Shown: one piece after another, positions 3,048 through 46,530 of the stretch
Numbering within the stretch: position 1 is the first letter of the stretch
How the letters are laid out: each line of letters opens with the position of its first letter
Source: a virus
Virus record (IMG/VR): IMGVR_UViG_3300045988_088382
Length of the DNA stretch: 55,782 nt
Reading direction: 5' to 3' (one strand)
Position numbers and translations under genes: made by a program
Notes under the pieces: model-generated
Database searches by the model: none
The model's input: the letters and a program-made list of their open reading frames with translations, nothing else
Told to the model about the DNA's origin: nothing

Positions 3048-4217
3048 TCAAGTGATAACCGTAGCAATCGGGTTATCGACGATGTACAGGGAGTTCACGC
3101 CAGACCCGGCAATCACGTCATCTCCCGCGCTGTCACGGATGATAAGTTTGTCCACGCCTGCCCTTGTATAATACCCGACATCGTATTCGCTGTAGTCATG
3201 CGCCGTCAGCGAATACCCGGCGTCACTGAACCATTTTAATTCAAGCGCACCGTCTCGGTTAATGTGGGCAAAGCAACCGCCAATCTCCGCGCACCAGCCC
3301 AGAATATCCCGATACGTAGCTTTGGCAAAGGCTTCCGGCGCAGACGAAACCGTTCTTTCGCCGTTCACCATTTGCGTAGAACCAAGGGTAACGCCTACGG
3401 CCTTACACACTTGGCCTACAAGGTTTTGAAGGGTCGTAGGAAAAGCGATAGACCCCTCTTTGTACTGGGTATCGAACAGGCTCATTGCGTCATAGGCGTC
3501 AATAGACAGCGTTTTTCGCGAGTTAAACACCGGCTTTTCTGCGTAAAACACGCCGAGCGGAACCATTTCGTAGATATCGGTGCTCGTCGGAGTGAAAACC
3601 ATAAGATTGTTTTCATCTTTGACGCCCGTGCCGCGTGTGCCCTTATGCCCGAAGCATACGCCGTAGTTCATCGTCTTCCACGCGATAGCCGCTTTTTGAA
3701 TCGGCGGCTCGTAAAACGCGAAATCTCCGGCTGTGAGTTCGCCGTTTCTGAATGTAAACTTCTGTGTTTGATTTTTCGTAAACACCAAGAGTTTATCATC
3801 GAGAAGCGCAAGCGCTTCTACCCGCTCGGTCACACCGCTTACAGCGGCATCGTTGAGCGTGAGAAACGGAGCTTTATCATTTCCGCGAATCCGAAAACTC
3901 CCGGTGTCGATTCTACACACGCAGTTAGGTGATTCGTAAATGACGTTCGTCCGAACCCCAAGATACGCCTTGAAAGCGCCGAAATCATATCCCGTCCATG
4001 TATTGTCATCGTTCAGGAGGTCAAAGGACAGCATCGCCGCCGAGCACCCGCCCGGTGCAAAATCCTCACCCTCATTAACGCTCGCCTGATAGCCGATGCC
4101 GCCGGAAGATATATTGATATCTCGTGGTGTTACAACCGCCTCGTCAAACAGAAGGAGGGGCAGTTGAAGCTCATCTTCTCGGATCGCTTCATGGAACGCC
4201 TCACTTACCGCGTACAT
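3048..4217 (-). CDS. tail-tip (Tal-position) structural protein
   Basis: ATG at 4217 preceded by AGGAGGGG; 390 aa. It is the second gene after the tape measure. Confidence 0.6.
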   Translation of the reverse strand: MYAVSEAFHEAIREDELQLPLLLFDEAVVTPRDINISSGGIGYQASVNEGEDFAPGGCSAAMLSFDLLNDDNTWTGYDFGAFKAYLGVRTNVIYESPNCVCRIDTGSFRIRGNDKAPFLTLNDAAVSGVTERVEALALLDDKLLVFTKNQTQKFTFRNGELTAGDFAFYEPPIQKAAIAWKTMNYGVCFGHKGTRGTGVKDENNLMVFTPTSTDIYEMVPLGVFYAEKPVFNSRKTLSIDAYDAMSLFDTQYKEGSIAFPTTLQNLVGQVCKAVGVTLGSTQMVNGERTVSSAPEAFAKATYRDILGWCAEIGGCFAHINRDGALELKWFSDAGYSLTAHDYSEYDVGYYTRAGVDKLIIRDSAGDDVIAGSGVNSLYIVDNPIATVIT

Positions 4218-4227
4218 CCTACCCCTC

Positions 4228-4602
4228 CTAAATTTCGATGATGTTGACCTTGAAATCGCCGATCCAGCGTTCTCTATTTGCGTCAACGCACTTCTTGGCT
4301 TCCCAATTTCGGTCGCCACAGTACGCGATAATCGTCTGCGCGCCCTCAATAGGGTCTGGATAGGTAAACTGAAATCGGTCGCCCTTATTCATAAGCCCGC
4401 CCATTTCCTTCATGGTCTCCCAGAAAATGCCGTTCCATTCCAGATTGACGTGACACTTCATCGCCACTTTGTTACGGCGAATGTCACCGCTGGCGTCACG
4501 CTCGCCAAGCGTGTCCAAGTCGCTTTGAGCGCCCTTGAAGGAAGAGGGATCAGGGATGGGAACACCGTTAATGGAGAACCCCATTTTGTAGTTGATAGCC
4601 AT
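4228..4602 (-). CDS. small tail component (Dit position)
   Basis: 124 aa; starts 4 nt after the tape-measure stop. Confidence 0.55.
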   Translation of the reverse strand: MAINYKMGFSINGVPIPDPSSFKGAQSDLDTLGERDASGDIRRNKVAMKCHVNLEWNGIFWETMKEMGGLMNKGDRFQFTYPDPIEGAQTIIAYCGDRNWEAKKCVDANRERWIGDFKVNIIEI

Positions 4603-8810: not shown

Positions 8811-9245
8811 TTAGGCAATCGGCTCAATCGGCGTAGACGGCGTGACGATGACGTTCATCTGAACGCGCTCGTTGACGCCACCGCCGGAAATCTGCGGGCG
8901 GATATAACCCTTGAAACCGAACTTACCCTTGCTACCGTCCGGGACAGCCGCAGTGCCCTTGCCCGTCGCGCCAAAAAATAGGGCGAGATCATGCTCCGCA
9001 CCGTCGTTCAACGTCTGAACGGAATCGTAGTCTTCCTTGGTATAATTGCTCTCAAAGGTCATGTTGTCATTACCCTCAATGCCGGGTATGAAGGTCTGCA
9101 TGTGATCTGAAAGCGTAGTCGTATCAATCGTCTCCGGAGCCTGACCCAGATCAGGGAAGGAGATAATGTCGATCAGCTTTTCGTAAGTCTCACCCGATTT
9201 CTTAATCATCAGGTAAGTCTGATAGGTGCTAATAGCCTTCGCCAT
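8811..9245 (-). CDS. major tail protein
   Basis: 144 aa from the second ATG, 8 nt after AAGGGGGAA. The size and the position just upstream of the chaperone pair are typical of siphovirus major tail proteins. Confidence 0.7.
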   Translation of the reverse strand: MAKAISTYQTYLMIKKSGETYEKLIDIISFPDLGQAPETIDTTTLSDHMQTFIPGIEGNDNMTFESNYTKEDYDSVQTLNDGAEHDLALFFGATGKGTAAVPDGSKGKFGFKGYIRPQISGGGVNERVQMNVIVTPSTPIEPIA

Positions 9246-9262
9246 AAGCATTTCCCCCTTTA

Positions 9263-9676
9263 TTAACGTCTATAGATAACGCCGTCTGCGTCCACAGCAC
9301 ATCGGTATCGAAGCGTCATCTGGTAAATGGAGTTGTAATTTCGATTTCGCGTAACGCTCGTTGACGAGCGGATAAAACCCAAAGCAATGAATGCCTTGTC
9401 CACCGCATCGGCGATCCTTCTGCACTCTTGCTTCTTTCCGGCCAGACTGTCTGTGAACACGTCAACCTCATAAAGCAAGTTCGCGAAGCACTCCGAATCG
9501 GAGCTGTCCTGAAAGCGCTTGTTCGTAGCGTTGCCGGTTTCGACAATGCTTACAAACGGCAACTGCGGAGGATGCGGGTTATAGGCCGACGCGAAGGTTA
9601 TGTCCTTCGCAAACTCGTTTTCAGCCATTACGCGATCTACAACGGCGCTGTAGACAGCCGCTTCTACGTCAATCAC
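9263..9676 (-). CDS. tail completion / head-tail joining protein
   Basis: 137 aa; GTG start 7 nt after GAGGTGG; position between the connector genes and the major tail gene. Confidence 0.5.
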   Translation of the reverse strand: MIDVEAAVYSAVVDRVMAENEFAKDITFASAYNPHPPQLPFVSIVETGNATNKRFQDSSDSECFANLLYEVDVFTDSLAGKKQECRRIADAVDKAFIALGFIRSSTSVTRNRNYNSIYQMTLRYRCAVDADGVIYRR

Positions 9677-10178
9677 TTAACGTCCACCTCGCTACATCCG
9701 TAATGACTTCACGTCCATACTCAGCCGCGTTGTACATTGGCGCGGCAATCGGTGTGCCGTGCGTAAAGCGCTTCTCACCGTCTCCGTCGATATATACCCA
9801 TGTGTCTCTTGCGCCCTTTCCTTGGCCATACGTGCCAATGGCACTCATGCCCATAGATTCAGCCCACGGATGCGGATAGGAGCCGACCGCGCCTGCACCG
9901 CCGTTGTAAAACTGGCCTGCGCCAAACTCGATCCACGGAACGCTTTCACCTCTGGCTACTACGCGCGCGGCGTCCCCGTCTTCCTCGACGGCTACGTGAA
10001 CGTCTTTTTCCTGCTCGTAAACAGCGCTGTCAAAGTTTTCCTGCGCTTTGTCGCGGATGGCTTCTGCCGTATTCTGGACAATCTGGCGCTTTTTTTCCTT
10101 GAGTTCGTCAAGATAAGCTCCAAGGATCGCGCTCAGGTCATCCAAATGAAACAGATCGACCGTAATTTCTCGGCTCAT
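9669..10178 (-). CDS. head-tail joining protein (HK97 gp10-like position)
   Basis: ATG at 10178 (MSREITVDLFHLDD...), just after the upstream stop; 169 aa. Confidence 0.5.
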   Translation of the reverse strand: MSREITVDLFHLDDLSAILGAYLDELKEKKRQIVQNTAEAIRDKAQENFDSAVYEQEKDVHVAVEEDGDAARVVARGESVPWIEFGAGQFYNGGAGAVGSYPHPWAESMGMSAIGTYGQGKGARDTWVYIDGDGEKRFTHGTPIAAPMYNAAEYGREVITDVARWTLSD

Positions 10179-14878: not shown

Positions 14879-16510
14879 TTAGAACAGGCGCTGCATCACT
14901 CTTGGCCTATAAGACGTTTCCTCGTCCATACACACCGCCATGCACAGGCTGTCCGGCGCGTCGTCATTCTTGTTTTTGCCGACGATTTTGAAGCTGTACA
15001 CGTTCTGCATAAAAAGCTGATACGGCTTGCTCCGCTTCCCGTCATCCAAAAAGACCATTCGCTCCCGGATGTCCGGCGCTTTATCGAAAATGCGCTGCGT
15101 TTTGCCGCCGGTCGTCCTCTGCGCAACCCTCGTCGTCAGGTTGATCCGCTTTTTGCGCTTGCGCAGAATCTCGTCTACGCCCTCCGCGTAGTCCTCCGTC
15201 ATCTTCGTCGCTTCCACCTGTAACGCGCCAACGCCGTGCTCAATCACCTTATCCGCCACGAGCGCTTGTGTCACACGCTTATCTCCGTTATCGTACACAA
15301 CATCGTGCACATACAGCTCATTCCCGTACTTGAAGATGACCGGCATCGCGCAGAAGTCGCCGCCGCCCCAGCTCGGGTCAAGCGCCGCGAAGATGCGATC
15401 CGGCTCCCCTTCGGGCAGTACGCCGTTGTAATACCTGAAATCGCCAGGGCTGAACACCGCGCCGTCGCGCTCAATCGGCTCGCCCTGATACTGCGCGTTC
15501 CAGCTCGCCATGTCGTTATTCCGCTCAAACGACGCTCTGCGCTGCTGGTAGTACGACGTGTCAAAGCCTACGCCGTACTTGTAGTGGAAATTGCTCTCGT
15601 CCTTCTCGTTCAAGGCCGGAATGTTGATAATCTTTATCCGCCGCCGCGCAAACTTCGGGTTGTTCAGCACCGTGTCAATGCGCTGGCCAATGGGATCTGT
15701 CAGGCTCCACCGCGTTCCGCACCAGAGAATCTTACACCCGCTCTTTGCGCGCGTCAGAAGGTTATTATCCACCTTGCTCCACGCGGCGGTGAGCCGATCT
15801 TTGCTCATGGCTTCCTCAATGCCGCTGATCAGGTCGTCGCTCATCAGGATGCCGTTGACGTCCACAGCGCCGTTCAGCGTGGAATACAGCGATCTGCACG
15901 TCAGAGACGCATACCGCTTCCTGCGGTCGATGTTCAGCGTCTCGTCCTTGCTGTTCGTCGCCACAAGCTCCGCGCCGGGGAATATCTCATGCCATGTGTA
16001 CGTTACCGGGTCGTTGATAATCTCAAGCACGCCGTTGTAGAACGCGGATGTGATGACGTCGGAGTACGCGCAGTACAGGTTCGCCTGCTCGCTGTTCCGG
16101 CCTATCGTCCACGTCATATAGAACATCAGCAGCGACGTTTTGCCTACTCGCGGCGGACAGCTCAAAAACAATTCGTCCAGCTCGTCATCCGCGAGCGCTT
16201 GCAGGCTCTCGACAAACGGTTTAATCACTCGCCGCCGGGGCAGATAAAACCGCTCCTCCGGCTTTCTGTTCCATTCCAGATAGACCAGATAGCTGTCAAA
16301 GTCCTTAGGTGCCGCCCACAGGTATGTTTGCTTCACCAGCTCATACGCCGCCTCGTCGCCCCGCGTGGCGAGCCGCTGCGCGTAGCTTCGCGCTTTCAGG
16401 CACAGCGCCAGATCGTCGGTGTTCCGCGCCATGTCAAACAGCATGCTTATATTCTTGAGATTTGACAGGTTCGATTTCAAAAGCCTGTCGATGATTCGCG
16501 CGTCTTCCAT
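14879..16510 (-). CDS. terL: terminase large subunit
   Basis: ATG at 16510, 7 nt after GGAGGAGG; 543 aa. Walker-A-like CPPRVGKTS. Followed by the portal gene. Confidence 0.9.
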   Translation of the reverse strand: MEDARIIDRLLKSNLSNLKNISMLFDMARNTDDLALCLKARSYAQRLATRGDEAAYELVKQTYLWAAPKDFDSYLVYLEWNRKPEERFYLPRRRVIKPFVESLQALADDELDELFLSCPPRVGKTSLLMFYMTWTIGRNSEQANLYCAYSDVITSAFYNGVLEIINDPVTYTWHEIFPGAELVATNSKDETLNIDRRKRYASLTCRSLYSTLNGAVDVNGILMSDDLISGIEEAMSKDRLTAAWSKVDNNLLTRAKSGCKILWCGTRWSLTDPIGQRIDTVLNNPKFARRRIKIINIPALNEKDESNFHYKYGVGFDTSYYQQRRASFERNNDMASWNAQYQGEPIERDGAVFSPGDFRYYNGVLPEGEPDRIFAALDPSWGGGDFCAMPVIFKYGNELYVHDVVYDNGDKRVTQALVADKVIEHGVGALQVEATKMTEDYAEGVDEILRKRKKRINLTTRVAQRTTGGKTQRIFDKAPDIRERMVFLDDGKRSKPYQLFMQNVYSFKIVGKNKNDDAPDSLCMAVCMDEETSYRPRVMQRLF

Positions 16511-16533
16511 GCCCTGACCTCCTCCGTCGGCAT

Positions 16534-16566
16534 ACAAAAACAGGGGCTATGCTTTCATAGCCCCTG
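16534..16566 (-). terminator. intrinsic terminator (copy B of the two-hairpin element) between the recombinase and terL
   Basis: Minus strand: CAGGGGCTATGaaagCATAGCCCCTG followed by TTTTTGT. About 70 percent identical to copy A, including the flank atagcccctgttggctgt. Confidence 0.7.
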
Positions 16567-16609: not shown

Positions 16610-17368
16610 TTAATCCCTCGGCAGAATCGCTTCCTGCTGGCCTTCAACCCATTCGCTGTTCTTGCCGTAACGGTAATACCCCTGATAGGTTTTCTTGTTG
16701 TTGAGGATTCCAGCAACTGTCGCGAGCATGAACGGCTTTCCGCTTCTCGTCGGCCAGCCTTCCTCGTTCAGCTTGGCCACCACATCGCGCATCGTCAATC
16801 CCTGATCCCTAAGCTCGAAGGCGCGAATCACGGACGGTGCTTCGTTCGGGTTGACCACCAAATGCCCGTTGGAAACCGAGTAGCCCATTGGCGCCTTTCC
16901 ACCAGAATACCCGCCCTGCTCGGCTTTCTGAATCCGGCCGGCGCTGGTGCGCTTCATAATGTTCTCGCGCTCCATCTCTGCCACGCAGAGCGTGAACGCC
17001 TCTAGCATGTTCGCAAACACGCCAAACTGCCCGAAATCCTCCGCGATTGAGATCAGCTCAATGCCCTTCATCTTGAGCTGCATTTTGTAATAATAATATA
17101 CATTGATGTCTCGGGCGATGCGGTCTGACTTGGCTACGATCACCGCTTCAATCGGCGGGTTCTGCACGTCGCCGTACACAATCCGGTCAAACTCCGGTCT
17201 GTCCATCTTCGCGCCGCTCTTCGCCTCGTCCTTGTACTCGTGAACGAGCTGCATGTCGTTCCTGCGGCAGTATTCCGCAATCTGCGCGCGCTGCGCGTCG
17301 ATGCCGAACTTGTCCTCTCCAACCTGTCCTTCGGTGGATACCCGGATATAGCTCACTACGTTTTTCAC
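16610..17368 (-). CDS. serine recombinase, short form (resolvase catalytic domain plus recombinase domain, no zinc-ribbon/coiled-coil)
   Basis: 252 aa; GTG start 8 nt after GGGAGGG. Catalytic motif YIRVSTEGQ at residues 7-15; VAKSDRIARD. Recombinase-domain-like GGKAPMGYSV and ILNNKKTYQGYY. Confidence 0.9.
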   Translation of the reverse strand: MKNVVSYIRVSTEGQVGEDKFGIDAQRAQIAEYCRRNDMQLVHEYKDEAKSGAKMDRPEFDRIVYGDVQNPPIEAVIVAKSDRIARDINVYYYYKMQLKMKGIELISIAEDFGQFGVFANMLEAFTLCVAEMERENIMKRTSAGRIQKAEQGGYSGGKAPMGYSVSNGHLVVNPNEAPSVIRAFELRDQGLTMRDVVAKLNEEGWPTRSGKPFMLATVAGILNNKKTYQGYYRYGKNSEWVEGQQEAILPRD

Positions 17369-17742: not shown

Positions 17743-17979
17743 ATGACCACTTGCCGCAAACCCGCCCACCGCGCTTATTATGTGCGGTATCCCCGCGACT
17801 TTGCCAACGAGTACAGCCTCCGCTATACCGTTGGCGGCGCTGAACTGTCCACCGATGACGGTTGGGAGCGCATCACCCGGCGCGAGGCCGAGCGACTGGC
17901 GCGCGCTGAACGTGAGCGCCGCCGCTGGGAGCCAGAGCGCAGCGGATACGCTGACGCGGATATATACTCCGCCGATTAA
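17743..17979 (+). CDS. hypothetical Arg/Glu-rich protein (78 aa)
   Basis: ATG at 17743 after GAAAGGGGA. MTTCRKPAHRAYYVRYPRDF...RREAERLARAERERRRWE. First gene after the consensus promoter. Confidence 0.65.
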   Translation: MTTCRKPAHRAYYVRYPRDFANEYSLRYTVGGAELSTDDGWERITRREAERLARAERERRRWEPERSGYADADIYSAD

Positions 17980-18022
17980 CAACAACAACAACAAAGACGA
18001 AATAGAAAGAGAGGATTGCACC

Positions 18023-18739
18023 ATGAAAGCGTATACAGAAATCTTGAAGGATATCGCCACCGCCCGCGCGGGCATAGTTGACACCACGAAGGCCGAAAAA
18101 GACTTTACGCGGAAAGCGATGATTACTGCGCGGAAATCCGGAACTGATGCGGAATTTGACGCGGCCGAGGCCGCGTACAAGGCCGCGGAAGAAAAGTATG
18201 TAGCCGAGTGTAAGCACAACGAAGACCTGCAAATAGCGCTTGAAATCCTGAAAGATAACGCCGCACAAGCGTTTTTCGCGGAAAATATCGGCGTCATCTG
18301 CGATATTTGGAACAAATACGCGGGAAAGCCCCACGGGGAAAAGACCTCTGACAAAATCCGCAAAGAATTGTTTGCGGCTTTGGGTGTCCGGGTTTGGATC
18401 GGCAACAAATACAATGACGCGAGCGTTACCTGCTATTTCGACGCGCCCGCCCCATTCCGTGGCCTTGAATTTTGCGCAACCCGCTCCAACGGGGAAAACG
18501 TCCCCGCGTTGATCGGTAACAAAATCCAGTCACTATGCCCGGAGGTTTTCCGCGTCTACAACTGTGGCGCGTATGTGGACGACGTGCCCGCCCACGTGCA
18601 GGCCATCCGAGAGGCGTACGACAAAGCCCGAGCGGCTGAAGCCGCTTTTGCGGCTGCCGTGTCGGATTATAACGCTTTGACGCGCGGCAACATTGCCCAG
18701 GCGTCCACCCGTGAGGGCGTGAAACGCTGGTTTCTTTAA
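18023..18739 (+). CDS. hypothetical protein (238 aa)
   Basis: ATG at 18023 after AGAGAGGA; MKAYTEILKDIATARAG...; no family recognised. Confidence 0.7.
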   Translation: MKAYTEILKDIATARAGIVDTTKAEKDFTRKAMITARKSGTDAEFDAAEAAYKAAEEKYVAECKHNEDLQIALEILKDNAAQAFFAENIGVICDIWNKYAGKPHGEKTSDKIRKELFAALGVRVWIGNKYNDASVTCYFDAPAPFRGLEFCATRSNGENVPALIGNKIQSLCPEVFRVYNCGAYVDDVPAHVQAIREAYDKARAAEAAFAAAVSDYNALTRGNIAQASTREGVKRWFL

Positions 18740-18760
18740 TTTTTGATGGGGGGTTATATC

Positions 18761-19039
18761 ATGCCCAAATCATACACCCCGACGCGCGAGCAGCGCGCGG
18801 AGCTGGAAAGCCTCGCCTATTGGATAGCGGATCGAGCTTGGAGCCGCGAGCGTGGCGAGCTGGACGAGCACGAGGATCAACGCACGAATAACACGATCCG
18901 CGCCATCTTTGACGCGCTGGATCGGCTGCGCGTCCCGTATTGGGCGCAAAACGCCGTGATCTGCTGGGCGGGGGATTGGCGGCGCACGATGTGCGAGGAT
19001 CTGCGGGACGCGATGCGCGCCCGGTCAATAATCTTGTAA
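18761..19039 (+). CDS. hypothetical protein (92 aa)
   Basis: ATG at 18761 after GGGGGG; MPKSYTPTREQRAELESLAYW... Confidence 0.6.
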   Translation: MPKSYTPTREQRAELESLAYWIADRAWSRERGELDEHEDQRTNNTIRAIFDALDRLRVPYWAQNAVICWAGDWRRTMCEDLRDAMRARSIIL

Positions 19040-19061
19040 TTTTCAGATAGGGGGCATTGCG

Positions 19062-19217
19062 ATGAAATTTGAGCGATTCCCAAAACGCTGCTATTTATGC
19101 GGTAAACCATTTTCACAAGCCGCCAAGGCTATCCCTGTAATAGGCGGGAAATGCGCGCCCGGTTATATTTGCCCCGCCTGCTATGCCAAACTATTTAAGA
19201 CGCCCGAAAGGCTATAA
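19062..19217 (+). CDS. small zinc-ribbon protein (51 aa)
   Basis: MKFERFPKRCYLCGKPF...GYICPACYAKLF with two CxxC pairs. ATG after GGGGCA. Not in the ORF track (under 60 aa). Confidence 0.5.
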   Translation: MKFERFPKRCYLCGKPFSQAAKAIPVIGGKCAPGYICPACYAKLFKTPERL

Positions 19218-19254
19218 GAAGGGGAAAAATGAAATCCTCGTATTCCAAAATTGA

Positions 19255-19277
19255 GGGGTATTGATACCCCTTTTTTT
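19255..19277 (+). terminator. intrinsic terminator of the plus-strand operon
   Basis: ggggta-ttga-tacccc followed by ttttttt. Confidence 0.8.
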
Positions 19278-19302
19278 ATGCCCTCGTTATTCGCCGCCTA
19301 TT

Positions 19303-19380
19303 TGCCCGTGTAGCGGTCTTGCGCGTCCCGATGGTATCTTGGTACCACCCCGACACGCAAGGCCGCTACACGGGCATTTT
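19303..19380 (+). terminator. very long hairpin (25-bp arms, 2 mismatches) followed by TTTT
   Basis: tgcccgtgtagcggtcttgcgcgtc ...24 nt... gacacgcaaggccgctacacgggca tttt. The loop contains a KpnI-like mini-palindrome. Confidence 0.6.
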
Positions 19381-19408
19381 AGACCGTTTCACGGCGTGCC
19401 CCTGACCG

Positions 19409-19665
19409 GCAGCAGGGCTTCACCAGCTCCAGCAGCTCCAGCAGCGCCCGGAACGTCGGCAGGGGCTTCACCAGCTCCAGCAGCGCCCGGATCGTCGGCA
19501 GTGGCTCCACCAGCTCCACCAGCGCCCGGATCGTCGGCAGGGGCTCCACCAGCTCCACCAGCGCCCGGATCGTCGGCAGGGGCTACCAGGACGGCAGGGG
19601 CTTCACCAGCTCCACCAGCTCCACCGGCGCCCGGATCGTCGGCAGCGGCTTCCAGGGCGGCAGGG
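19409..19665. repeat. about 6 tandem copies of a GC-rich 39-nt unit (ggcaggggctccaccagctccaccagcgcccggatcgtc)
   Basis: Read directly. Both strands are open across it only because of the repeat. Confidence 0.85.
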
Positions 19666-19830
19666 GCTACCCGACAACGGCGCGCAACCACAGCCGCGCG
19701 GGCGCAATCGAGCACCGCCCCACGCGCGCATCTGCGCAGCTACGCGGGCACACATAGCTGTGCGAACGCATACGCGCGCAGCCGCACAAGCGATCTCACG
19801 TACAGCCGCGCTGGAGGTGTACGCGCGCAA

Positions 19831-19902
19831 CCACACAGCCGTTCGGGCGCATAGCCACGCGGCCGTTCGGGCACATAGCCACACAGCCGTTCGGACGTAT
19901 AG
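19831..19902. repeat. 3 x 24-nt tandem repeat ccacacagccgttcgggcgcatag
   Basis: Units at 19831, 19855 and 19879 with 2-4 substitutions each. Confidence 0.85.
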
Positions 19903-20113
19903 CCGCTTGATTTTTACGCCTGTCTGTAAACACCTTCGGCAGCATCGCGCGGCGCTTTCCCGGAAAGCAAGCGATAAGACCAAGCGATGGCGTGAAAACA
20001 AGCGATGACGCGATCCCCGCGCCCTCACAGGCTGTTGGTTCACTGCTCAGACAGTTTCCTGCCCGTTCTAGGCGTTTTCCTGCGCCGCGTGATATTCTTT
20101 ATCATCCTACGCG

Positions 20114-20139
20114 GCTAAACGCTCAGACGGGCGTTTAGC
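20114..20139. other. 9-bp perfect hairpin gctaaacgc-tcagacgg-gcgtttagc
   Basis: Read directly. Confidence 0.6.
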
Positions 20140-20153
20140 TACTCTCACGCGCT

Positions 20154-20297
20154 CACGCCGTGGGATTTTGAAAACCATACGCCCACGCCGTGGGATTTTG
20201 AAAATCGCGCATGCCGTGGGCTTTTGAAAACTGTACGCTCACGCCGTGGGATTTTGAAAAGCCCATCAGGCAAAATCATCCTGTGGGCTTTTGATTT
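20154..20297. repeat. 5 direct copies of CGTGGG(A/C)TTTTGA boxes (4 as cacgccgtgggattttgaaaa), 26-39-nt spacing, abutting the terS stop
   Basis: Copies start at 20154, 20184, 20210, 20240 and 20279. The last forms part of the terS terminator. Confidence 0.85.
20251..20290 (-). terminator. intrinsic terminator after terS
   Basis: Minus strand: AGCCCACAGG-atgattttg-CCTGATGGGCT followed by TTTTCAAAAT. Confidence 0.7.
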
Positions 20298-20943
20298 ATT
20301 CAATTGTGTAGTCTGTGTCAACGTCCATCTGCATAAACTCGTCTGGCTCTGGCAAATTCTTTGCGATTTCCTCCGGCGTAAGCGGTTCATTGCTGTCATC
20401 CGCGCTTGCCGAAACAACGATTTCCTGACGGTCACTCATGCCGTAATAGTTCTTAGAACGGAAGATATATGTCACCGGATTCATCTTGCCGGATTCGGTC
20501 AAAACTGCGTCTGTGGCGTGTATCATCTCTAAAGCTTTTTTAGCGATGAGTTTTGTACTTATACCCGGTAAAGGCTCATCACGGAATCCCTTATTCATTC
20601 CACTCCGCCAAGCCCTGAGCGTTTCGGACGTATACCCGCAATACAAACCAAGTTCCTCAACCGTTGGAGGGATGGCGCGATTTTGAATTTGATTGAAATA
20701 GTCATCAAGACGCTCTAGCAGCTCGGCGTTGCTCTGTACAGGCTTCATCAAAAATGCCTTCCGCAGATGGCCTATCGTATCGCCGAGAAGGTTCTTTGTC
20801 TCCGGCTTATCCAGATCCGCATAGCCTTGAGGGGCTAAGGATTCACGGGGCTTAAATTCAAACTCCGTCACCGCGTCTGGGCTTTTCAGAAAATTGCTTC
20901 CCCGATTGCTTACGCGGTTAGAGTTGTCACGCTTCGTCGCCAC
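20296..20943 (-). CDS. terS: terminase small subunit (gp3-type DNA packaging protein)
   Basis: 215 aa; GTG 7 nt after GAAGGAGGTG. Pattern PPTVEELGLYCGYTSETLRAWRSG ... NPVTYIFRSKNYYGMSD resembles the HTH plus IF.LKN..GW.D signature of small terminases. Confidence 0.7.
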   Translation of the reverse strand: MATKRDNSNRVSNRGSNFLKSPDAVTEFEFKPRESLAPQGYADLDKPETKNLLGDTIGHLRKAFLMKPVQSNAELLERLDDYFNQIQNRAIPPTVEELGLYCGYTSETLRAWRSGMNKGFRDEPLPGISTKLIAKKALEMIHATDAVLTESGKMNPVTYIFRSKNYYGMSDRQEIVVSASADDSNEPLTPEEIAKNLPEPDEFMQMDVDTDYTIE

Positions 20944-20958
20944 GTCGCGTCACCTCCT

Positions 20959-21321
20959 TCACACATAGAAAAAATGCAGCCCCTTGATCGCTTTACGTCC
21001 GTAACTTTGGAGCGACTTGTTGATATCACCGGGAGCGATCCCGAAAGCCTTTGAAGCCTCGGACACGCTATCGTATGTCGTATTGTTTTCCCAGCAATGC
21101 ACGGGCTTACGTCTTCCGTCTTGTCTTGGGAGGCTCTTTCGTTCCTCAAGCAGCAAATACCTTCTTTCCCGCAAATATTTTTCAAATAAATTTTCCGGGG
21201 TCATTTTGCAAACCGCCTTTCTCTTCATTTTCCGGGCGCGGCAATCCAATCCGCATCGTGTCCCGAAATGGCCGTTTTCGGGCACTTTCGAGCCTGAAAT
21301 TTTAGTTATGTTTCTATCCAT
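20959..21321 (-). CDS. NUMOD1-like HTH DNA-binding protein (start uncertain: 21321, 21228 or 21204)
   Basis: C-terminal HCWENNTTYDSVSEASKAFGIAPGDINKSLQS...GLHFFYV resembles the DNA-binding module of homing endonucleases. First gene of the terS operon. Confidence 0.5.
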   Translation of the reverse strand: MDRNITKISGSKVPENGHFGTRCGLDCRARKMKRKAVCKMTPENLFEKYLRERRYLLLEERKSLPRQDGRRKPVHCWENNTTYDSVSEASKAFGIAPGDINKSLQSYGRKAIKGLHFFYV

Positions 21322-21348
21322 ACTTTGACCAAGGCTGAAACGGGGTCT

Positions 21349-21804
21349 GGTGTAGGGTGGTGTAGGGTTTACCCAAGGGGCCCTAACGCGGGGCTAGGGG
21401 CAGATGTAATTAGCTTTTAGGGTGTGCAGACCCTACACCGCCTACACCAACTTCACGCCGCTCCGTAAAAAGTTCTGTGCAGACCCTACACCGCCTACAT
21501 TTTTAGTGCATCTTACACAAAGGATTGTCTACCCGGATTGTGCATCTGGTTTTTCAAATTAACAACTGCTCCCGTGACTACCCTACACCGCCTACACCGC
21601 TACCCTACACCTTGCCTACACCTTGCCTACACCACCCTACACCACCCTACATCTTATAACAAGTGGCCTCAATCAAAAGTTTGTGCAAATGCCTACACAC
21701 CCTACACCAGCGCATATTCGCACGAAAAAGTTTGTGCAAATGCCTACACTGCCTACACCCGTTTTATCTGTAACGCATGTCATTTGGTGTAGGGTGGTGT
21801 AGGC
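21349..21804. repeat. array L1: 19 CCTACAC(C)-type boxes (15 forward, 4 inverted at the two edges) plus two aaaagtttgtgcaaatgcctacac units
   Basis: Counted by eye. The 24-nt left edge ggtgtagggtggtgtagggtttac equals the reverse complement of 44960..44983. ORF-free 540-bp gap. Confidence 0.9.
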
Positions 21805-21861
21805 AAATTTTCCCGAAAAACCGCCCCTCAAACAGGGTCAAAACTCGTTTTATCGGGCTAG

Positions 21862-22068
21862 TTATTTATCCTCGGAATTACTTATCGTTTCATTCTCTTT
21901 TTTCTGGCATTCCCGCGCCTGTTTGATTAGGGAAATCGTCTCCTCGAAGAAGCTGTTTGACATAAACACGAGCGCCTTAACCGCCCGGCGTTGACCGACG
22001 GCTCTACCCGCCATGAACCCGGCCAGCAAAAGGCCGATGTCCGTAATCACCCAAAGCATCAGATTCAT
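21862..22068 (-). CDS. small membrane protein
   Basis: ATG at 22068 (ATGA overlap with the upstream stop). N-terminal hydrophobic helix LMLWVITDIGLLLAGFMAG. Confidence 0.55.
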   Translation of the reverse strand: MNLMLWVITDIGLLLAGFMAGRAVGQRRAVKALVFMSNSFFEETISLIKQARECQKKENETISNSEDK

Positions 22069-22322
22069 GCGCAATCACTCTCCACTTTCAGTCTCTTAAA
22101 CTCCTTAAAGGCGTAGGCTTGGCTTGACGTCGTGAGAAGCCATTTATCGCCCTTCCAGACGTGCCAGAGCGGCAGGCGACCTAACGGGTTATCCGTTCTG
22201 GCGGCGCTGTAGAACAGCCTTAAATCCTTGTAAACCTCCACTCGCGCCAGCCCAGGCTTTCCGTCTGTCCGACTGAGATCTCCGTTAAACGTCGCCGCCC
22301 ATCTTTCAAGCATCTTTCCCAT
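22065..22322 (-). CDS. hypothetical protein (85 aa)
   Basis: ATG 4 nt after the SPFH stop; RBS GAGGG. Confidence 0.55.
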   Translation of the reverse strand: MGKMLERWAATFNGDLSRTDGKPGLARVEVYKDLRLFYSAARTDNPLGRLPLWHVWKGDKWLLTTSSQAYAFKEFKRLKVESDCA

Positions 22323-29127: not shown

Positions 29128-31611
29128 TTACGGGTTTTCGTTTCCAAACGTCGGGTCAATAACCTCTACGCCCTTGAGCATAACGCCCTTCTTTTCCCGA
29201 CAATATTCAAAGCCCTTCTCCTGCATTTTCTTCTTAAATTCCCGGTCACCGCCATACCACTTCATGCCGGATTCCTGCATCCAGCGCGTAAACGTCTGGA
29301 AAACAAGCCCGGTCGGCGTTCGTGCATCGGCGTTATCCAGCGAACAACACTCGTTTACAAATCGCGTGATCACGTCTTCGTTGTCCAAATACTCCTTTGT
29401 CGCTTCCAATACGACCTTCGGTTTTTTGAGCTTCATGTGCTGCGCGTAAAACTTCATCGCGCCCTCGATCATCCATGCGAGAATAGCGGGGCCTTCTTTT
29501 TCCACCAGTACGCCCGCGAAGTCCATGATCTTTTCTTCGGGCTTCAAGCTCATGTTAAACGGGGCTACCGCGATACGCCGCGCAGTACCGCCGTCAACGC
29601 TTTTAAGGCGTGGCAGATGGTTTGTATGCAGGATTAGCGTATGGCTCGGCGTAAACGTAATAGGCTCGTGGAATTTAACGTTTGCGCTGATCGGGTCTTG
29701 AGAGGTTAGCCGCTTGAGCATAGATGACTGCATGGCTTGGTTCGCTTCAAGCTCACTTGTCAGCACAAGGCGCTTGCCACGGAGTAAGTTCTGACCGGCA
29801 ACCTCGCTTCCGTTCCGGCTGCCCGTCAGCACCTCATTTCGAACCGTCGCCGCATAACCGCCTAATAGCGTATGCCAAACGGAGAATAACGTAGACTTAC
29901 CGTTTCCGCCATTGCCGTACACCAGCAGCAAGCCTTCCTCGTACACCTTGCCTACCAGCGCCATCCCGGCTACCGTCTGAATGTATTCGGCAAAGTCCGT
30001 GTCATCGCCGGTCACTTGACGCATGAACTTGTCCCATAGCGGTCTTTGAGCCGTGAAATCGGGCGATAGCCGCGTCATCATCGTGCACATATATTCAGCC
30101 CTATGCGGCTTTTCCTCGCCTGTACGGAGGTCTATAACGCTGTCAGACGTATTCAGCAGCCACGGATCGTTGTCAAATTCATCCGCGTCGCGCACACTCA
30201 TCAAAGACTGAGCGGCTTGAAGCGTATGTGCCATGACGTTATAAGATCGGCTTGCAGTAGCCCACTTGACCGCCGCCACAGCATCCTTGTAATCCTCCGG
30301 CCAATCGTCACGCTTGCAGCCTTTTTCGGGCTTAGGCGCGAGCTGAAATTTGCGGTCAGCCTCGTCCTTCATGCGGTCGTTCAGGCACATAACCAGCATG
30401 ATCGCGTCTGTCTTGGCGTACTGTTGCCAAACAGCGCCGTCCCATACGCACCAGTCCAGCGCGCCACTGTATCGCATGACGTTAAAATTTGAATCCTTTA
30501 GCCTAATAGCATTGCCGGATTCTGTGTAATCGCGGTCGTCGCGACGAAGAATGTCAGCATCCCCGCCGTCAGCGAAATCACGGCTGGCGTTGATCTGGAT
30601 CATGTCTTCCAACTTGTGCCGCACTTCGCTGTCGGACGAGATTAGACTTTTCATTTTTTCAAATGATCGTCCTTCATCGCTGTCCGGGTAAAGGTGGAGG
30701 CGTACAAGGTCAAAGGCATTGCACGTTCGCCCGTGACAAGGATCGCTCTCATGGTGAGAGTATGCAAACAGCCCGTCGTCATAGACTACCAATCCCGCCG
30801 TGGTAGACGCGCCGATGAACGTATATCGGTTCGGCATGCCCTCACAAGGCGAATACACTTTTCCCAGGAACTTCGAAATCGCCTGATGCACGTCGTAGAC
30901 CGAGCAGAACGCGCCAACAATGCCATTCTTACTGCGCGGGTCTTGCTGCTTGTCCTTGATCTCGTGTGCTTGTGTGCGCGTCGTGCGCGAAGATATAGGC
31001 CATGAAGCACGATTTTTATAATCGGCATACATGCCCAGCACTTCATCGACATCAACGAAAGCCCCGTCACGCTGTTTGACGATGAACTCACCGTCCCGGC
31101 AAGTGCTCGGCCAGAACATCAGGCGTGATGCCTGATATGTCGTGTCGTCGAACAGCTCAATGTCGATCAGCGATGCGACCATTCGACCTACGGCCTCGTA
31201 CTCGATTTTGTCCACGTCGCGTGACAGCGGCATATACAGCCTGTAACGCGGCTTCTCCCGCGTATGACTGTGCGTGGTGTGCATCAGGCATGTCCAGTCG
31301 TAAAGGTCACACAACCCGTCTACAACGTCCCAAGTGTCGGGCTTGCCATAGTCGATGTCCAAAGAGAGAATCTGACGGGACAAAAGATTCGACCCCCGAC
31401 GGATTCCGTCTTTGAACTCGCCGCCGACAAATCCGCCAACGTCTTTAATGCGGCCTTTTGATTCGCGATCCATGGCCGCGTACTCGACCTCGGTCTCATT
31501 TGTCATGCGCGTATGGGACAGCCGCTCGCAAAGCTCAGGCCATGTCAGGTGTACGGGTCTCCATGACGTAGCGTTTTTGCTCAACCCTTCACTAATCGTC
31601 AGCGTTTGCAT
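29128..31611 (-). CDS. bifunctional primase-polymerase / D5-P4-type helicase
   Basis: ATG at 31611 after GAAGGGAG; 827 aa. AEP-like LSLDIDYG and HTTHSHT..PRYRLYMPL in the N-terminal part. Walker A GNGGNGKST in the C-terminal part. Confidence 0.85.
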   Translation of the reverse strand: MQTLTISEGLSKNATSWRPVHLTWPELCERLSHTRMTNETEVEYAAMDRESKGRIKDVGGFVGGEFKDGIRRGSNLLSRQILSLDIDYGKPDTWDVVDGLCDLYDWTCLMHTTHSHTREKPRYRLYMPLSRDVDKIEYEAVGRMVASLIDIELFDDTTYQASRLMFWPSTCRDGEFIVKQRDGAFVDVDEVLGMYADYKNRASWPISSRTTRTQAHEIKDKQQDPRSKNGIVGAFCSVYDVHQAISKFLGKVYSPCEGMPNRYTFIGASTTAGLVVYDDGLFAYSHHESDPCHGRTCNAFDLVRLHLYPDSDEGRSFEKMKSLISSDSEVRHKLEDMIQINASRDFADGGDADILRRDDRDYTESGNAIRLKDSNFNVMRYSGALDWCVWDGAVWQQYAKTDAIMLVMCLNDRMKDEADRKFQLAPKPEKGCKRDDWPEDYKDAVAAVKWATASRSYNVMAHTLQAAQSLMSVRDADEFDNDPWLLNTSDSVIDLRTGEEKPHRAEYMCTMMTRLSPDFTAQRPLWDKFMRQVTGDDTDFAEYIQTVAGMALVGKVYEEGLLLVYGNGGNGKSTLFSVWHTLLGGYAATVRNEVLTGSRNGSEVAGQNLLRGKRLVLTSELEANQAMQSSMLKRLTSQDPISANVKFHEPITFTPSHTLILHTNHLPRLKSVDGGTARRIAVAPFNMSLKPEEKIMDFAGVLVEKEGPAILAWMIEGAMKFYAQHMKLKKPKVVLEATKEYLDNEDVITRFVNECCSLDNADARTPTGLVFQTFTRWMQESGMKWYGGDREFKKKMQEKGFEYCREKKGVMLKGVEVIDPTFGNENP

Positions 31612-31808
31612 TTCCCGGCTCCCTTCGGTTCTCGCATGCCTCTGCACTCCATGAACGGGTAAGTCGTTGTATAGATGCGCTTGAACCTGTCCATAGCGTC
31701 AAAGGCGTTATCGCCGTGAACGGCGAACAGCAGCGGTTTTTCGCCACGCCGTCGTTTCGCGGCGATGATAAACTCAGGTTTAATCTTCCTGCTGTTCGTC
31801 GGTCTCAT
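31599..31808 (-). CDS. hypothetical protein (69 aa)
   Basis: ORF with ATG 31808; overlaps both neighbours. Confidence 0.4.
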   Translation of the reverse strand: MRPTNSRKIKPEFIIAAKRRRGEKPLLFAVHGDNAFDAMDRFKRIYTTTYPFMECRGMREPKGAGKCKR

Positions 31809-35135: not shown

Positions 35136-37097
35136 TTAGTCCTTCATGTAATATGGCGTAATGTAGCCCGCGCCCTTGAGCGGCAGCCCCGGTGCCCATT
35201 CAATCGGTTCCGACATGCAGGCATACATATATTGCAAGGCTTCCTCAGCCTCGTTCTCGGGAACTTCCACGACCATTTCATCGTGGATGTGCATCACGAT
35301 ATCCGGGTATTTCTCCGCCACACGCAACATTGAAACGATGAGACAGTCTCTAGCCACGGCCTGAACCACGTTCTCAAACAGCTTGCCGCCCCACGTTTCC
35401 GTGAGCTGCTCGGTGCGCTTATAAAAGGAACTGTAGCCGACCGATTCTTTACCAAAGCGGTTCGTCGTCATGCACGGCTTGTAATAACGGATACACCGCC
35501 CGGACGGTAGCCGAATATGCAGTAGCCGTCCAGTTCTGAACACCTCCAGCCCATATGGCAGAAAGCCTTGTTCCCGATTGACTACTGAATCCCGGACAAC
35601 TTCTTCGAGCTTATACCAGTAGTTCACGATATGCGGGTTAGCTTCACGCCACGATTTCACGATTTGCGGAAGTTCATCTTCCTTCAAGCCCATCTTCAAG
35701 GCGCCCATTTTCAGCATAGCCCCTTCGGTGCCGCCATAGCCGAGCGCGAGAACAGCGATTTTACCCTTCTGTCTCAGCTCGGCGTTCGGGCCATGCTTTC
35801 CGACGGGTACGCCAAACATCTGACTCGCCGTCTCACAGTAAATATCCTTGCCCTGCTTGAAGGAATCAACCACCCAGTCTTCACCGGCCAACCATGCGGA
35901 CACTCGCGCCTCGATTGCGGAAAAGTCCGCAACGGCGAATACGTGTCCGGGTTTGGCGATAAACGCCGTCCTGACGAGCTGAGACAGCGTGTCCGTTACG
36001 TCGCCATACATGGCTTCTACCACGTCTCTATCGCCCGTCAACACCGCGTTTCGCGCCGTGTCAAGGTCTTCAAAATGGTTCTTCGTAAGGTTCTGTAACT
36101 GTACGCCGCGCCCGGCAAAGCGCCCCGTGCGTCCTGCGCCGTAAAACTGGAACAGCCCCCGGCAGCGGTTATCCCTGCACATGTACCGCTCCATCGCGTC
36201 ATACTTAGCTACCGAGCTTTTGCCAAGCTCTTTACGGATTTTCAGTACTTCCAGTCTGTCACCCGTTTCGGTTGACAGCATCTCTTTGACAACTTCTTTG
36301 TCAAGAGAGCCGGTCACGCCGAACCATGACTTTAACTGCGCCATGCTGTTCGGGTTCGCAAGCCCCGTCAGCGCTTTCATTTTGGCTGTCAGCAGCTTTG
36401 AATGTTCCTCGGCAATCGAGATCGACGCCTCGGCCAGCGGTCTGTCACAGAGTACGCCGCGTCGGTTGATTCGGTAGTCCAGACACCACGCCTCATGCTC
36501 GTTGGCATCTGGCTCATAGGCTTCAAGCCTTTTGCGGATTGCACGCTCTGTCACAACGTCCTGCCGGTTGTACTCGATAAACGTAGCCCATTTATCTGGC
36601 GCATCGCTCGGCATGTTCCGCGTTCTGCCGCCATTAGACTGTGTAGGCTTACACGGCACACAGAAGTACCGAATAAGCTCTTTACCGCGCCTGTCCTTTT
36701 GTGCGTCCTGCGGTAAGTCCAGCGCTTTTCCTGCGCCGCCCAACGACATCGGCAGTCCACAAGTCGCCGCCGTAATCATCGTGTCCGACCACTGTTCCGG
36801 GATCATCTCTTGACCTAGCCAGTGTGTAAAACAGGTCATCTCAAAAGCGGCATTCCACGCCGTCTTTTTAATCGTCGCGTCGAGCAGCCATTCCGTGAAC
36901 TGCCGCTTAATCTGAGCGATATCCGTTACCGGGTCTGTCAGGTCAATGACTTCCACAGGGTCATCATCAAACGCATACCCGATCAGCAGATTCTCAAAAG
37001 AGCTGTCCTCCGCGTATCTGTCAACACCGCATTTGCCGATATCGACCTCGCTATAGGTTTCAAGGTCGATTGAGAGACAACGGGTCATTTCATTCAC
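35136..37097 (-). CDS. family A DNA polymerase with 3'-5' exonuclease domain
   Basis: 653 aa. Exo I motif SIDLETYS. Polymerase motifs including DFSAIEARV and HDE in the C-terminal half. Confidence 0.9.
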   Translation of the reverse strand: MNEMTRCLSIDLETYSEVDIGKCGVDRYAEDSSFENLLIGYAFDDDPVEVIDLTDPVTDIAQIKRQFTEWLLDATIKKTAWNAAFEMTCFTHWLGQEMIPEQWSDTMITAATCGLPMSLGGAGKALDLPQDAQKDRRGKELIRYFCVPCKPTQSNGGRTRNMPSDAPDKWATFIEYNRQDVVTERAIRKRLEAYEPDANEHEAWCLDYRINRRGVLCDRPLAEASISIAEEHSKLLTAKMKALTGLANPNSMAQLKSWFGVTGSLDKEVVKEMLSTETGDRLEVLKIRKELGKSSVAKYDAMERYMCRDNRCRGLFQFYGAGRTGRFAGRGVQLQNLTKNHFEDLDTARNAVLTGDRDVVEAMYGDVTDTLSQLVRTAFIAKPGHVFAVADFSAIEARVSAWLAGEDWVVDSFKQGKDIYCETASQMFGVPVGKHGPNAELRQKGKIAVLALGYGGTEGAMLKMGALKMGLKEDELPQIVKSWREANPHIVNYWYKLEEVVRDSVVNREQGFLPYGLEVFRTGRLLHIRLPSGRCIRYYKPCMTTNRFGKESVGYSSFYKRTEQLTETWGGKLFENVVQAVARDCLIVSMLRVAEKYPDIVMHIHDEMVVEVPENEAEEALQYMYACMSEPIEWAPGLPLKGAGYITPYYMKD

Positions 37098-38862: not shown

Positions 38863-39313
38863 TTGCGCCCTCCAGCATCTCGTTTACCCGGCGCATGACC
38901 TCCGGGTATTGGTCTTCGGGAATATCCTGGAACTTGTTCACGCCGAAATCCCGGACGATCTCAAGCATCTTCGCCTTGCCCAGCGACGGCGTTTTAACGA
39001 TTTTCAGGAGCGCCGCGCGAACCTCGTCCGGCTTATACTCCGTTTCGGTCTTCGGTGCTGGGGCGGCGGTCGGCACGTCAGGCGCTTTAGGTGCGTCAGG
39101 CGCTTTGGGTGCGTCGGGCGCTTTGGGTGCTTTGGGTGCGTCAGGTGCTTTGGGCGCTTCAACCGGCTTCTTCGCTTCCTGCGGGCTTTCAGGTTTTTTC
39201 GGGGTTTCCGCAACGGGCATTCGGGCAAAGGCTTCATTCAGGCAAGCGCTGAGTTCAACCGCGTCCCTTAAAAACAGATCCAGCGTTTCCGCTTCGATGC
39301 TCAAACGAATCAT
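38852..39313 (-). CDS. hypothetical protein with APKAPD proline-rich linker
   Basis: 153 aa; RBS AAAGGAG. The central PKAPDAPKAPKAPDAPKAPDAPKAPD is encoded by short tandem DNA repeats at about 39060..39165. Confidence 0.65.
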   Translation of the reverse strand: MIRLSIEAETLDLFLRDAVELSACLNEAFARMPVAETPKKPESPQEAKKPVEAPKAPDAPKAPKAPDAPKAPDAPKAPDVPTAAPAPKTETEYKPDEVRAALLKIVKTPSLGKAKMLEIVRDFGVNKFQDIPEDQYPEVMRRVNEMLEGANAT

Positions 39314-40879: not shown

Positions 40880-41340
40880 TTTGCCGCTGCCCTGCGGCGC
40901 CATGCAATGCCACAACCTCGCTGAGCTAAACTCTGCAATGCCCTCGCAAAGCCGGGCTGCACCGTGCCGTCGCCGTGCATGACTAAACTGTACTTCGCCG
41001 TTGCAGTGCTTAGATGGGCTATACGATGCCCGCGTATTACTGTGCATTGCCCTTACTTTGTGTAGCAGCACTTTGCCCTTGCTGAGCTAAACTCTGCGTT
41101 GCCCTTGCAATACAAAGATGCGCTAGGCCATGCCCTTGCCGAGCTATGCAGTGCAGCGCCCTTGCATGGCTATGCTCTGCAATGCCCTTGCTGAGCTAAA
41201 CTCTGCGTTGCCGTCGCAGAACGTGTCATCGCCATGCCTTTACTACGCATTGTTAGGCAATGCAATGCCCGAGCAACGCGGTGCTTTACCTCTGCTTAGC
41301 TGTGCAGTGCTTTGCCGTAGCAGAGCTTGACTTTTGCGAG
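40880..41340. repeat. degenerate tandem array with about a 27-nt period, core TGCCCTTGC
   Basis: Three near-identical copies of gctgagctaaactctgc at 40920, 41081 and 41190 (spacings 161 and 109 nt, that is 6 x and 4 x about 27). Many weaker units lie between them. No ORF covers the array. Confidence 0.8.
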
Positions 41341-46528: not shown

Positions 46529-46530
46529 GG

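Follow-up and report, generated by a model that had tools for sequence, protein, structure and literature searches.

Paired octamer arrays of an uncultured temperate phage as a predicted two-part iteron origin for a P4-type primase-helicase

Introduction

Why does a phage genome carry the same short box in two dense arrays some 23 kb apart, one at the entry to its late operon and the other in front of its integrase gene (int)? We address this question for a 55,782-nucleotide stretch of viral DNA (IMG/VR record IMGVR_UViG_3300045988_088382), hereafter the window, in which copies of the octamer CCTACACC form array L1 (21349-21804) and array L2 (44886-45123). A sequence-only reading of L1 had placed the array in no known class and offered three roles for it: a platform for a single regulator that couples late transcription to integration and excision, arm-type sites for the tyrosine integrase (Int), or a titration sponge. 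Our analysis points elsewhere. Judged from comparative sequence analysis, L1 and L2 are probably the iterons of a bipartite (or double) replication origin that is predicted to be served by the phage's own primase-helicase, a protein of the P4-alpha/PriRep type.

Results

The genome-wide motif count that the sequence-only reading had proposed leaves little room for chance. Exact copies of CCTACAC number 30 in the window, against a mean of 2.95 and a maximum of 7 in shuffled sequence, and 0 of 100 shuffles reached 30. Twenty-eight of them fall into the two clusters, which lie 23.1-23.5 kb apart, and only two copies stand outside (26291 and 36641); in a sliding k-mer count the L1 and L2 boxes are by far the strongest short-motif clusters of the genome. 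L1 holds 17 exact boxes, 13 on the plus strand and four on the minus strand, together with two degenerate plus-strand boxes (CCTACAtt at 21494 and CCTACAtC at 21646), 19 in total, and the earlier count of 15 forward and four inverted copies is thereby reproduced. The inverted boxes start at 21350, 21360, 21787 and 21797, so that inverted pairs do cap both ends of L1, as had been described. L2 has 11 boxes, three inverted at its left and eight direct. Adjacent boxes are spaced 9-11 bp apart, with one case of 13 bp, and Tandem Repeats Finder reports for L1 a run of about seven copies with period 11 and for L2 3.1 copies of a 38-bp unit. Longer units, AAAAGTTTGTGCAAATG plus two boxes and AAAAAGTTCGTGCAGA plus two boxes, are shared by the two arrays in the same orientation at 85-97% identity, again in agreement with the earlier reading. 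The arrays and the protein proposed to act on them are as follows.

21349-21804: array L1; in order, two inverted boxes, a 66-bp spacer, two direct boxes, unit A (A5GTTCTGTGCAGA plus two boxes), an AT-richer stretch (21490-21560), seven direct boxes in 9-13 bp phase (21582-21653), two units of AAAAGTTTGTGCAAATG plus two boxes, and two inverted boxes
21349-21448: left module of L1; two inverted boxes, the 66-bp spacer and two direct boxes, all pointing outward from the centre
About 21490-21580: most AT-rich part of L1, between box groups, 60-67% AT against 46% for the genome; candidate unwinding region
44886-45123: array L2; in order, two inverted boxes, a 56-bp centre with one more inverted box within it, two direct boxes, and three 38-bp tandem units, each CGTAAAAAGTTyGTGCAram plus two boxes
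29128-31647, minus strand: primase-helicase of 839 amino acids (aa), the proposed iteron-binding initiator

Each array thus contains a module of two inverted boxes, 56-66 bp and two direct boxes. The outward-pointing left module of L1 has the layout of the canonical origin core of Staphylococcus aureus pathogenicity islands (SaPIs) and phage-inducible chromosomal islands (PICIs) (PMC9371898, PMC6092414), and the same layout is found behind primase genes in loci L038, L059, L069, L268, L273 and L354. L1 fills a 540-bp non-coding gap (21322-21861) between the end of the early operon and an open reading frame (ORF) resembling NUMOD1 proteins, upstream of a terS-like ORF; both this location and its character as the early/late boundary, at the entry to the late operon, are confirmed. 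From the end of L2 it is 53 bp to the int start codon (45176). Minus-strand terminators formed from a box and the GTGCA element were also considered, and the weak hairpin-plus-T-run matches were judged to be by-products of the repeats.

The nature of the arrays became apparent from other viral contigs, which were scanned with the bare DNA pattern CCTACACNNCCTACAC and, in a second scan, with an ATCYGTCAT-type box. The first scan returned a close relative (L023) and two unrelated multi-box contigs, L059 and L009. Chance coincidence of their CCTACAC arrays was ruled out, the adjoining genes being P4-type primase-helicases. Distant terS relatives (L129-L134) carry another box, ATCYGTCAT. Nine copies of it, where 0.14 are expected, lie in the gap that precedes a pair of genes for a helix-turn-helix (HTH) protein and TerS. 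In each contig of this L129 type one ATCYGTCAT array was seen, among the matches listed, within about 8 kb on either side, and there too the array is the first thing after a primase gene. The second scan gave still other contigs, and among its matches listed chance matches predominate. In all cases the gene that ends just ahead of the array encodes a large protein, and alignment reveals a common helicase core and C-terminal domain.

A local hidden Markov model of the helicase core and C-terminal region was run on every ORF of all fetched loci. Among 238 listed loci that were retrieved solely through two box-pair patterns, 17 have a P4-type primase-helicase gene whose 3' end lies at most 150 bp from a box. 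Primase adjacency is concentrated, among the matches listed, in loci with at least five boxes (10 of 38, against 7 of 200 others; Fisher p = 3e-5). Their layout is uniform: beginning 0-60 bp past the stop codon come two or three inverted boxes, an AT-rich stretch of 60-130 bp and at least two direct boxes. Primase-adjacent arrays occur in L038, L059, L069, L097, L145, L185, L198, L229, L234, L239, L268, L269, L271, L273, L275-L277 and L352-L354. Arrays of CCTACAC itself follow primase-helicase genes in at least five independent lineages (L059, L038, L069/L090, L097 and L271/L352), so the view that such an array fits no known class can be set aside. Furthermore, ATCCGTCAT boxes follow primase genes in loci with no terS nearby (L185, L229, L145, L239 and L234).

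The primase-helicase of the window has the architecture expected of such a partner. Its Pfam domains are D5_N (residues 383-546), DUF5906, which corresponds to the superfamily 3 (SF3) P-loop (577-691), and Pox_D5 (758-821). P4 alpha has three domains identical in kind and order, with Pox_D5 at 670-768 in the region of its known origin-binding domain, and the helicase cores of the two proteins align in BLASTP. The top match of the window protein by sequence in the PDB is 7OLA, PriRep5 of SaPI5 (E 1e-9). An AlphaFold2 model of the last 135 residues, with a predicted local distance difference test score of 86, has the topology helix-strand-helix-helix-strand-strand, and we therefore describe the C-terminal domain as a predicted winged helix. 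Among the best Foldseek matches of this model are the C-terminal domain of the D5-like primase of African swine fever virus (ASFV), the P4 origin-binding domain (1KA8, probability 0.87), RFX5 and origin-DNA-bound Cdc6/Orc1. A sequence profile of the domain matches the C-terminus of the ASFV primase (E 1e-4), and the domain alone as a protein query gave one weak match.

If the C-terminal domain reads the box, the two should change together across homologues, and this is what we observe. In a protein search the window primase-helicase had many homologues, which share 40-57% identity with it. We fetched the DNA around eight of them and added five loci from the viral-contig scan. An array lies directly past the stop codon in seven of the eight homologue loci (the exception is L270; in L355 the sequence stops at the gene end) and in four of the five scan loci (the exception is L274). 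Most matches of an alignment-based locus search covered the N-terminal 360 aa only, and their 1.5-kb flanks ended before the arrays, so only L273-L277 were usable from that search. The boxes at the individual loci are as follows.

L268 (P0006) and L273: CCTGCAC
L354 (P0003): CCTCCAC
L353 (P0050): GCTACAT
L269 (P0032) and likewise L198: ATGACGG
L275: CCGTCCAC
L271 (P0044) and L352 (P0055): CCTACAC-type
L276 and L277: GTTACC and GTTACG, respectively

At least seven box classes are seen across the homologues, and those seen across diverse contigs comprise CCTACAC, CCTGCAC, CCTCCAC, GCTACAT, CCGTCAT, CCGTCCAC and GTTACC/GTTACG. The body of P0032 is 50% identical to the window protein, yet its C-terminal domain is as in L198, and so are its ATGACGG boxes. 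At a finer scale, L276 and L277 (about 3885-4330) are near-identical loci in which the box differs by one base and the primase C-terminal domains differ.

The differences between the C-terminal domains of L276 and L277 lie in the predicted recognition helix and wing, a natural specificity switch. Within the wing, Gly-Val accompanies CCTACAC in four lineages, Gly-Met accompanies CCTGCAC and Gly-Asn accompanies CCTCCAC. A rule by which a single wing residue sets the box is broken by P0050, which has Gly-Met with GCTACAT, and we therefore make no claim for any residue. In L270, whose primase is 48% identical, no array was found within the sampled 10 kb on each side. A 500-bp gap of that contig holds a long palindrome (GTGGTGTTATTGTTGTTTTTT ... 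AAAAAACAACAATAACACCAC; 16250-16400) around a GC-rich core, possibly a different kind of origin.

The repeat unit itself also links the window to a primase-adjacent array. On the minus strand the window unit reads, in turn, GGTGTAGG, nGTGTAGG and CATTTGCACAAACTTTTTACG, and the primase-adjacent repeats of L353, three of 61 bp each, read ATGTAGC, AATGTAGC and ATTTACGCAAAACTTTTTCGG. The window unit, two boxes followed by ATTTGCACAAACTTTTTACG, aligns with these L353 origin repeats over the box pair and ATTTrCrCAAAACTTTTT; the two have different box pairs and share the neighbouring element of about 20 bp. L1 and L2 are thus made of one and the same module as the primase-adjacent origin of a relative. 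L1 lies at the early/late boundary, like the L129-type array, and for this reason L1 may be the ancestral site, which inserted cargo would have moved away from the primase gene, and L2 may be a partial duplicate.

The window as a whole has the gene content of a temperate tailed phage. Positions 1-55 match 55728-55782 exactly, and these identical 55-bp ends indicate a circular phage genome of 55,727 bp rather than an integrated prophage; in a circularly closed genome the phage attachment site (attP) should be intact. The main features beyond the arrays and the primase-helicase are listed below.

21.3 kb down through the window start, then 55.7 to about 47 kb, minus strand: late and structural genes
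42.3 to 21.9 kb, minus strand: long early operon
35136-37097, minus strand: family A DNA polymerase, within the early operon with the primase-helicase; the presumed elongating enzyme
42.5-44.5 kb, plus strand: three XRE-type regulators
45176-46348, plus strand: tyrosine integrase gene int, whose upstream region L2 fills
20959-21321, minus strand: NUMOD1-like HTH ORF
20296-20943, minus strand: weak GP3_package/terS-like ORF, after the NUMOD1-like ORF
21862-22074, minus strand: small ORF on the other side of the L1 gap
16610-17368, minus strand: ORF of 252 aa with Resolvase and Recombinase domains, directly upstream of the large terminase gene (14879-16537)

Other products of the early operon are an anti-repressor, an exonuclease, a Gp2.5-like single-stranded DNA-binding protein, a thymidylate synthase, a VRR-NUC-like nuclease, an SNF2 helicase, DNA methyltransferases, a PAPS-reductase-like protein and an SPFH protein. 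The early region contains two further repeats, about five copies of 26 bp (TTGCCCTTGCTGAGCTAAACTCTGCA) at 41073-41212, between a gene for a 251-aa protein and the anti-repressor gene, and three to four copies of 18 bp (CGTCAGGCGCTTTGGGTG) at 39076-39159, inside or beside a small gene. Scans for tRNA genes and Rfam families gave zero hits in the whole window. Megablast of 15-30 kb segments, including a 15-kb segment spanning L1, found no match among deposited phage genomes, and tblastn of Int and the terS product against the same genomes gave distant matches only, at no more than 34% identity (26% for the best integrase match). Hence there is no annotated relative to compare.

On the late side of L1, five copies of CACGCCGTGGGATTTTGA (period 30/56) lie directly 3' of the terS-like gene, with analogues after the GP3_package gene in L269 (8296-8697) and L268 (14580-14911). 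These repeats are possibly a pac region, or they may control an opposite-strand cassette. Between the terS-like and resolvase-like genes, the block at 17780-20140 has reversed GC skew and plus-strand ORFs, and it holds 39-bp tandem repeats (19426-19668) and 24-bp repeats (19831-19904). In relatives this position is taken by an opposite-strand cassette that includes a GP88-family gene. The 252-aa resolvase-like product is too short for a large serine recombinase, and its pairing with the large terminase gene recurs in relatives L269 (11311-12063) and L270 (19940-20698).

In Int, about 85 residues precede the core-binding domain. Around the 3' end of its gene, RGTTGCCRR boxes at 46300-46530 are arranged in one orientation with a 10-11 bp phase, two of them within the int 3' end and the other four 140 bp further downstream. 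The set brackets the int stop codon and a hairpin, AACAGGGTTACACCCTGTT (46397-46415), and is followed by a strong bidirectional terminator (46535-46562). From its sequence, the region 46300-46530 is a candidate attP with Int arm-type sites.

Close uncultured relatives retain both arrays in every case found, at 93-99% identity: L1 is conserved in L125-L128, and L2 in L023, L120-L124, L138-L140 and L142. Around int and terS, 15 related DNA stretches were compared with the window, and all are collinear with it, across L2 as well. Searching with Int, we found no integrated form among species-representative genomes, and the metagenome and viral contigs with the same Int were all collinear, so the prophage junction and attP could not be mapped. 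In L124 (4199-7170), similarity to the window ends 25 bp past the int stop codon, with a transposase-like ORF beyond. This break represents an insertion sequence or a module replacement at the putative attP side, with no evident host DNA.

Discussion

In regard to mechanism, the findings are consistent with the following sequence of events. The early operon would yield the 839-aa primase-helicase, with its N-terminal primase part, D5_N domain, SF3 helicase and predicted C-terminal winged helix. The C-terminal domain would recognize the octamer, and box pairs 9-11 bp apart would present themselves on one face of the helix. In the spacer of about 56-66 bp between opposed pairs, the self-loading hexameric helicase would assemble and the DNA would open; the primase part would then prime synthesis and the phage's family A polymerase would extend. 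L1 and L2 would together act as a bipartite origin in the manner of P4 ori and crr, or as alternative origins in the manner of SPP1 oriL and oriR. On this model the arrays bracket the early/replication region, with L1 at its 3' end, bordering the late operon, and L2 outside its 5' end, on the region upstream of int. Because L2 covers that region, occupancy by the initiator may also affect int expression, and we infer that effects on late transcription could arise similarly. Such secondary regulatory effects of initiator binding are possible, as is recombination between L1 and L2.

The closest parallel is satellite phage P4. In its RefSeq record, crr (4291-4590) contains 10 'ori type 1' octamers in both orientations and lies directly 3' of alpha, beside attP and int, and ori (9086-9809), about 4.8 kb off, contains six type-1 octamers and three type-2 repeats and is placed between the early-operon start and the late sid operon. 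Every one of the 11 exact copies of TGTTCACC in P4 falls in crr or ori, against 0.38 expected genome-wide. Reportedly, crr is needed in cis and is bridged or looped to ori by alpha. P4 and the window thus share an octamer in both orientations, often in pairs 9-11 bp apart with A/T tracts ahead; two clusters kilobases apart that bracket the early/replication operon; one cluster by int (and attP in P4) and a second that heads the late operon; and a protein with D5_N, SF3 P-loop and C-terminal Pox_D5 domains. They differ in the box (TGTTCACC in P4, CCTACACC in the window), in cluster separation (4.8 kb against 23.5 kb) and in box number (16 against 30). The P4 crr directly follows alpha, whereas neither window array touches the primase gene, and the 3'-end cluster lies by int in P4 but by the late operon in the window. 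The primase part of alpha is of Toprim/zinc-ribbon type, unlike the N-terminal part of the window protein, and P4 is an 11.6-kb satellite, whereas the window is a 55.7-kb phage with its own polymerase.

The islands provide a second comparison. The C-terminal winged helix of SaPI Rep binds short iterons, 6-12 of which lie immediately downstream of rep, with at least two on each side of an AT-rich centre and in opposite directions, and Rep is a helicase that loads itself (PMC9371898); the origins of PICIs from Gram-negative bacteria are similar (PMC6092414). Short iterons in two opposed sets around a centre, an SF3 helicase initiator (self-loading in SaPI) and an iteron sequence specific to the Rep are features in common with the window, whose initiator has PriRep5 as its best match of solved structure, and the SaPI/PICI arrangement is found exactly in the window's relatives. 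In a SaPI the origin is single and directly follows rep, its 6-12 iterons are penta- or hexanucleotides and its centre is clearly AT-rich, whereas the window has two remote arrays of 19 and 11 octamers with moderately AT-rich spacers. For two distant sites, Bacillus phage SPP1 offers a precedent, since its G38P binds two distant regions, oriL and oriR (PMC5737612). Like the window, SPP1 has two discrete, distant repeat regions, bound there by one phage initiator (PMC5737612); but G38P is a replisome organizer unrelated to the window protein and lacks helicase and primase, oriL is embedded in its own gene, and the SPP1 repeats are AB boxes.

Several observations weigh against a replication origin at L1 and L2. 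As to position, the relatives have, within +/-10 kb, one array that adjoins the primase gene, unlike the remote arrays of the window. The gene 3' of the window primase-helicase overlaps its stop codon, so there is no gap behind the primase gene, and that place is free of any array. L1 lies 7.3 kb downstream of the primase gene, beyond a methyltransferase and accessory block, and L2 lies 13.2 kb upstream, beyond the lysogeny-control genes. The module centres of both arrays have GC-rich cores with short AT flanks, leaving the spacers only moderately AT-rich. As to DNA recognition, the Foldseek matches of the C-terminal model are all weak, none at E of 0.001 or below; the sequence profile of the domain did not retrieve 1KA8; recognition helices differ among proteins of the CCTACAC class; and among the homologues compared no single C-terminal-domain residue could be tied to the box. 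In close relatives, boxes vary at 6 of 152 positions and spacers at 26 of 303, a difference that is not significant (p = 0.08) and rests on few substitutions. Finally, the adjacency of L2 to int and the N-terminal extension of Int keep a role as arm sites formally open.

That last reading takes the boxes as arm-type sites of the tyrosine integrase, with L2 as an attP whose core separates its inverted from its direct boxes, and L1 as a second Int platform. L2 does abut int in a circular contig where attP is expected intact, its inverted and direct boxes around a 56-bp centre recall P and P' arms, and the roughly 85 extra residues of Int could suit arm binding. We nevertheless consider it quite improbable, and the corresponding proposal of the sequence-only reading is not the best fit, because unrelated contigs carry CCTACAC arrays next to primase-helicase genes and the box tracks the primase C-terminal domain. 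Moreover, 30 sites, 19 of them 23 kb from int, greatly exceed what is known of attP architecture, the 56 bp between the arms leave little room for a core and bending sites, and GGTTGCC, with six of its 10 genome copies at 46300-46530, is better placed and makes the more conventional attP candidate. A regulator would account for the positions of both arrays: as operators of a late activator or global repressor, the boxes would act on the late operon at L1 and on int at L2, several HTH proteins are encoded nearby, and multi-locus operators of short repeats exist, such as those of omega of pSM19035 and of P1 C1. Against this, no sigma-70-like promoter was found in L1 and those near int all fall outside L2, L1 and L2 point in opposite directions with respect to their downstream genes, and in the sampled sequence of the relatives there are no copies of the box at the entry to the late operon. 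Neither operators nor a titration sponge, which had also been suggested, would predict the association with primase genes or the joint change of box and C-terminal domain, and we hold this pair of readings to be very improbable. What does stand of the proposed platform is that both arrays belong to one motif system, most likely for a single DNA-binding protein; its role in coupling late transcription to integration is not favoured.

It is highly improbable that L1 is a pac or cosB packaging site, bound by the small terminase or the NUMOD1-like HTH protein, with L2 as a secondary copy. Pac sites made of repeated short boxes exist, for example in P1, L1 is immediately upstream of the pair of HTH-protein and terS-like genes, and the L129-type ATCYGTCAT array likewise directly precedes a small HTH gene and terS. 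That array is equally the first element after a primase gene, however, and the ATCCGTCAT boxes follow primase genes that have no terS nearby. In the relatives, no copies of the primase-adjacent box were found in the sampled sequence (+/-10 kb) ahead of the terminase genes, and a packaging site leaves L2, at int and far from terS, unexplained. The terS-like gene has other repeats beside it, the five CACGCCGTGGGATTTTGA copies at 20150-20294, with analogues in relatives.

The replication-origin reading admits one extension, which we consider rather unlikely. Pairing of L1 and L2 by the initiator, through handcuffing or looping over the 23-kb early region, might couple replication licensing to int expression and late-operon entry, and direct-repeat recombination between the arrays could shed the replication module. 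Were this pairing true, the primase-helicase would double as the switch protein suspected in the sequence-only reading.

Our findings fit into a broader picture of how phages organize replication. The origin is of a known kind, the P4/SaPI design, and its split, remote layout is the unusual part. If correct, the assignment would give a replication origin and an initiator to a gut-type group of uncultured temperate phages that has no cultured relative, and it would mean that the design of a self-loading primase-helicase with 3' iterons, known from SaPIs and P4, is widespread in full-size phages. The homologues would offer a natural panel of C-terminal-domain and box pairs for studies of winged-helix specificity. 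Annotators may wish to take care that such arrays are not read as attP arms, late promoters or pac sites. The split arrangement would stand as a second natural case beside P4 ori and crr, in which to ask why a phage should keep two distant clusters of iterons.

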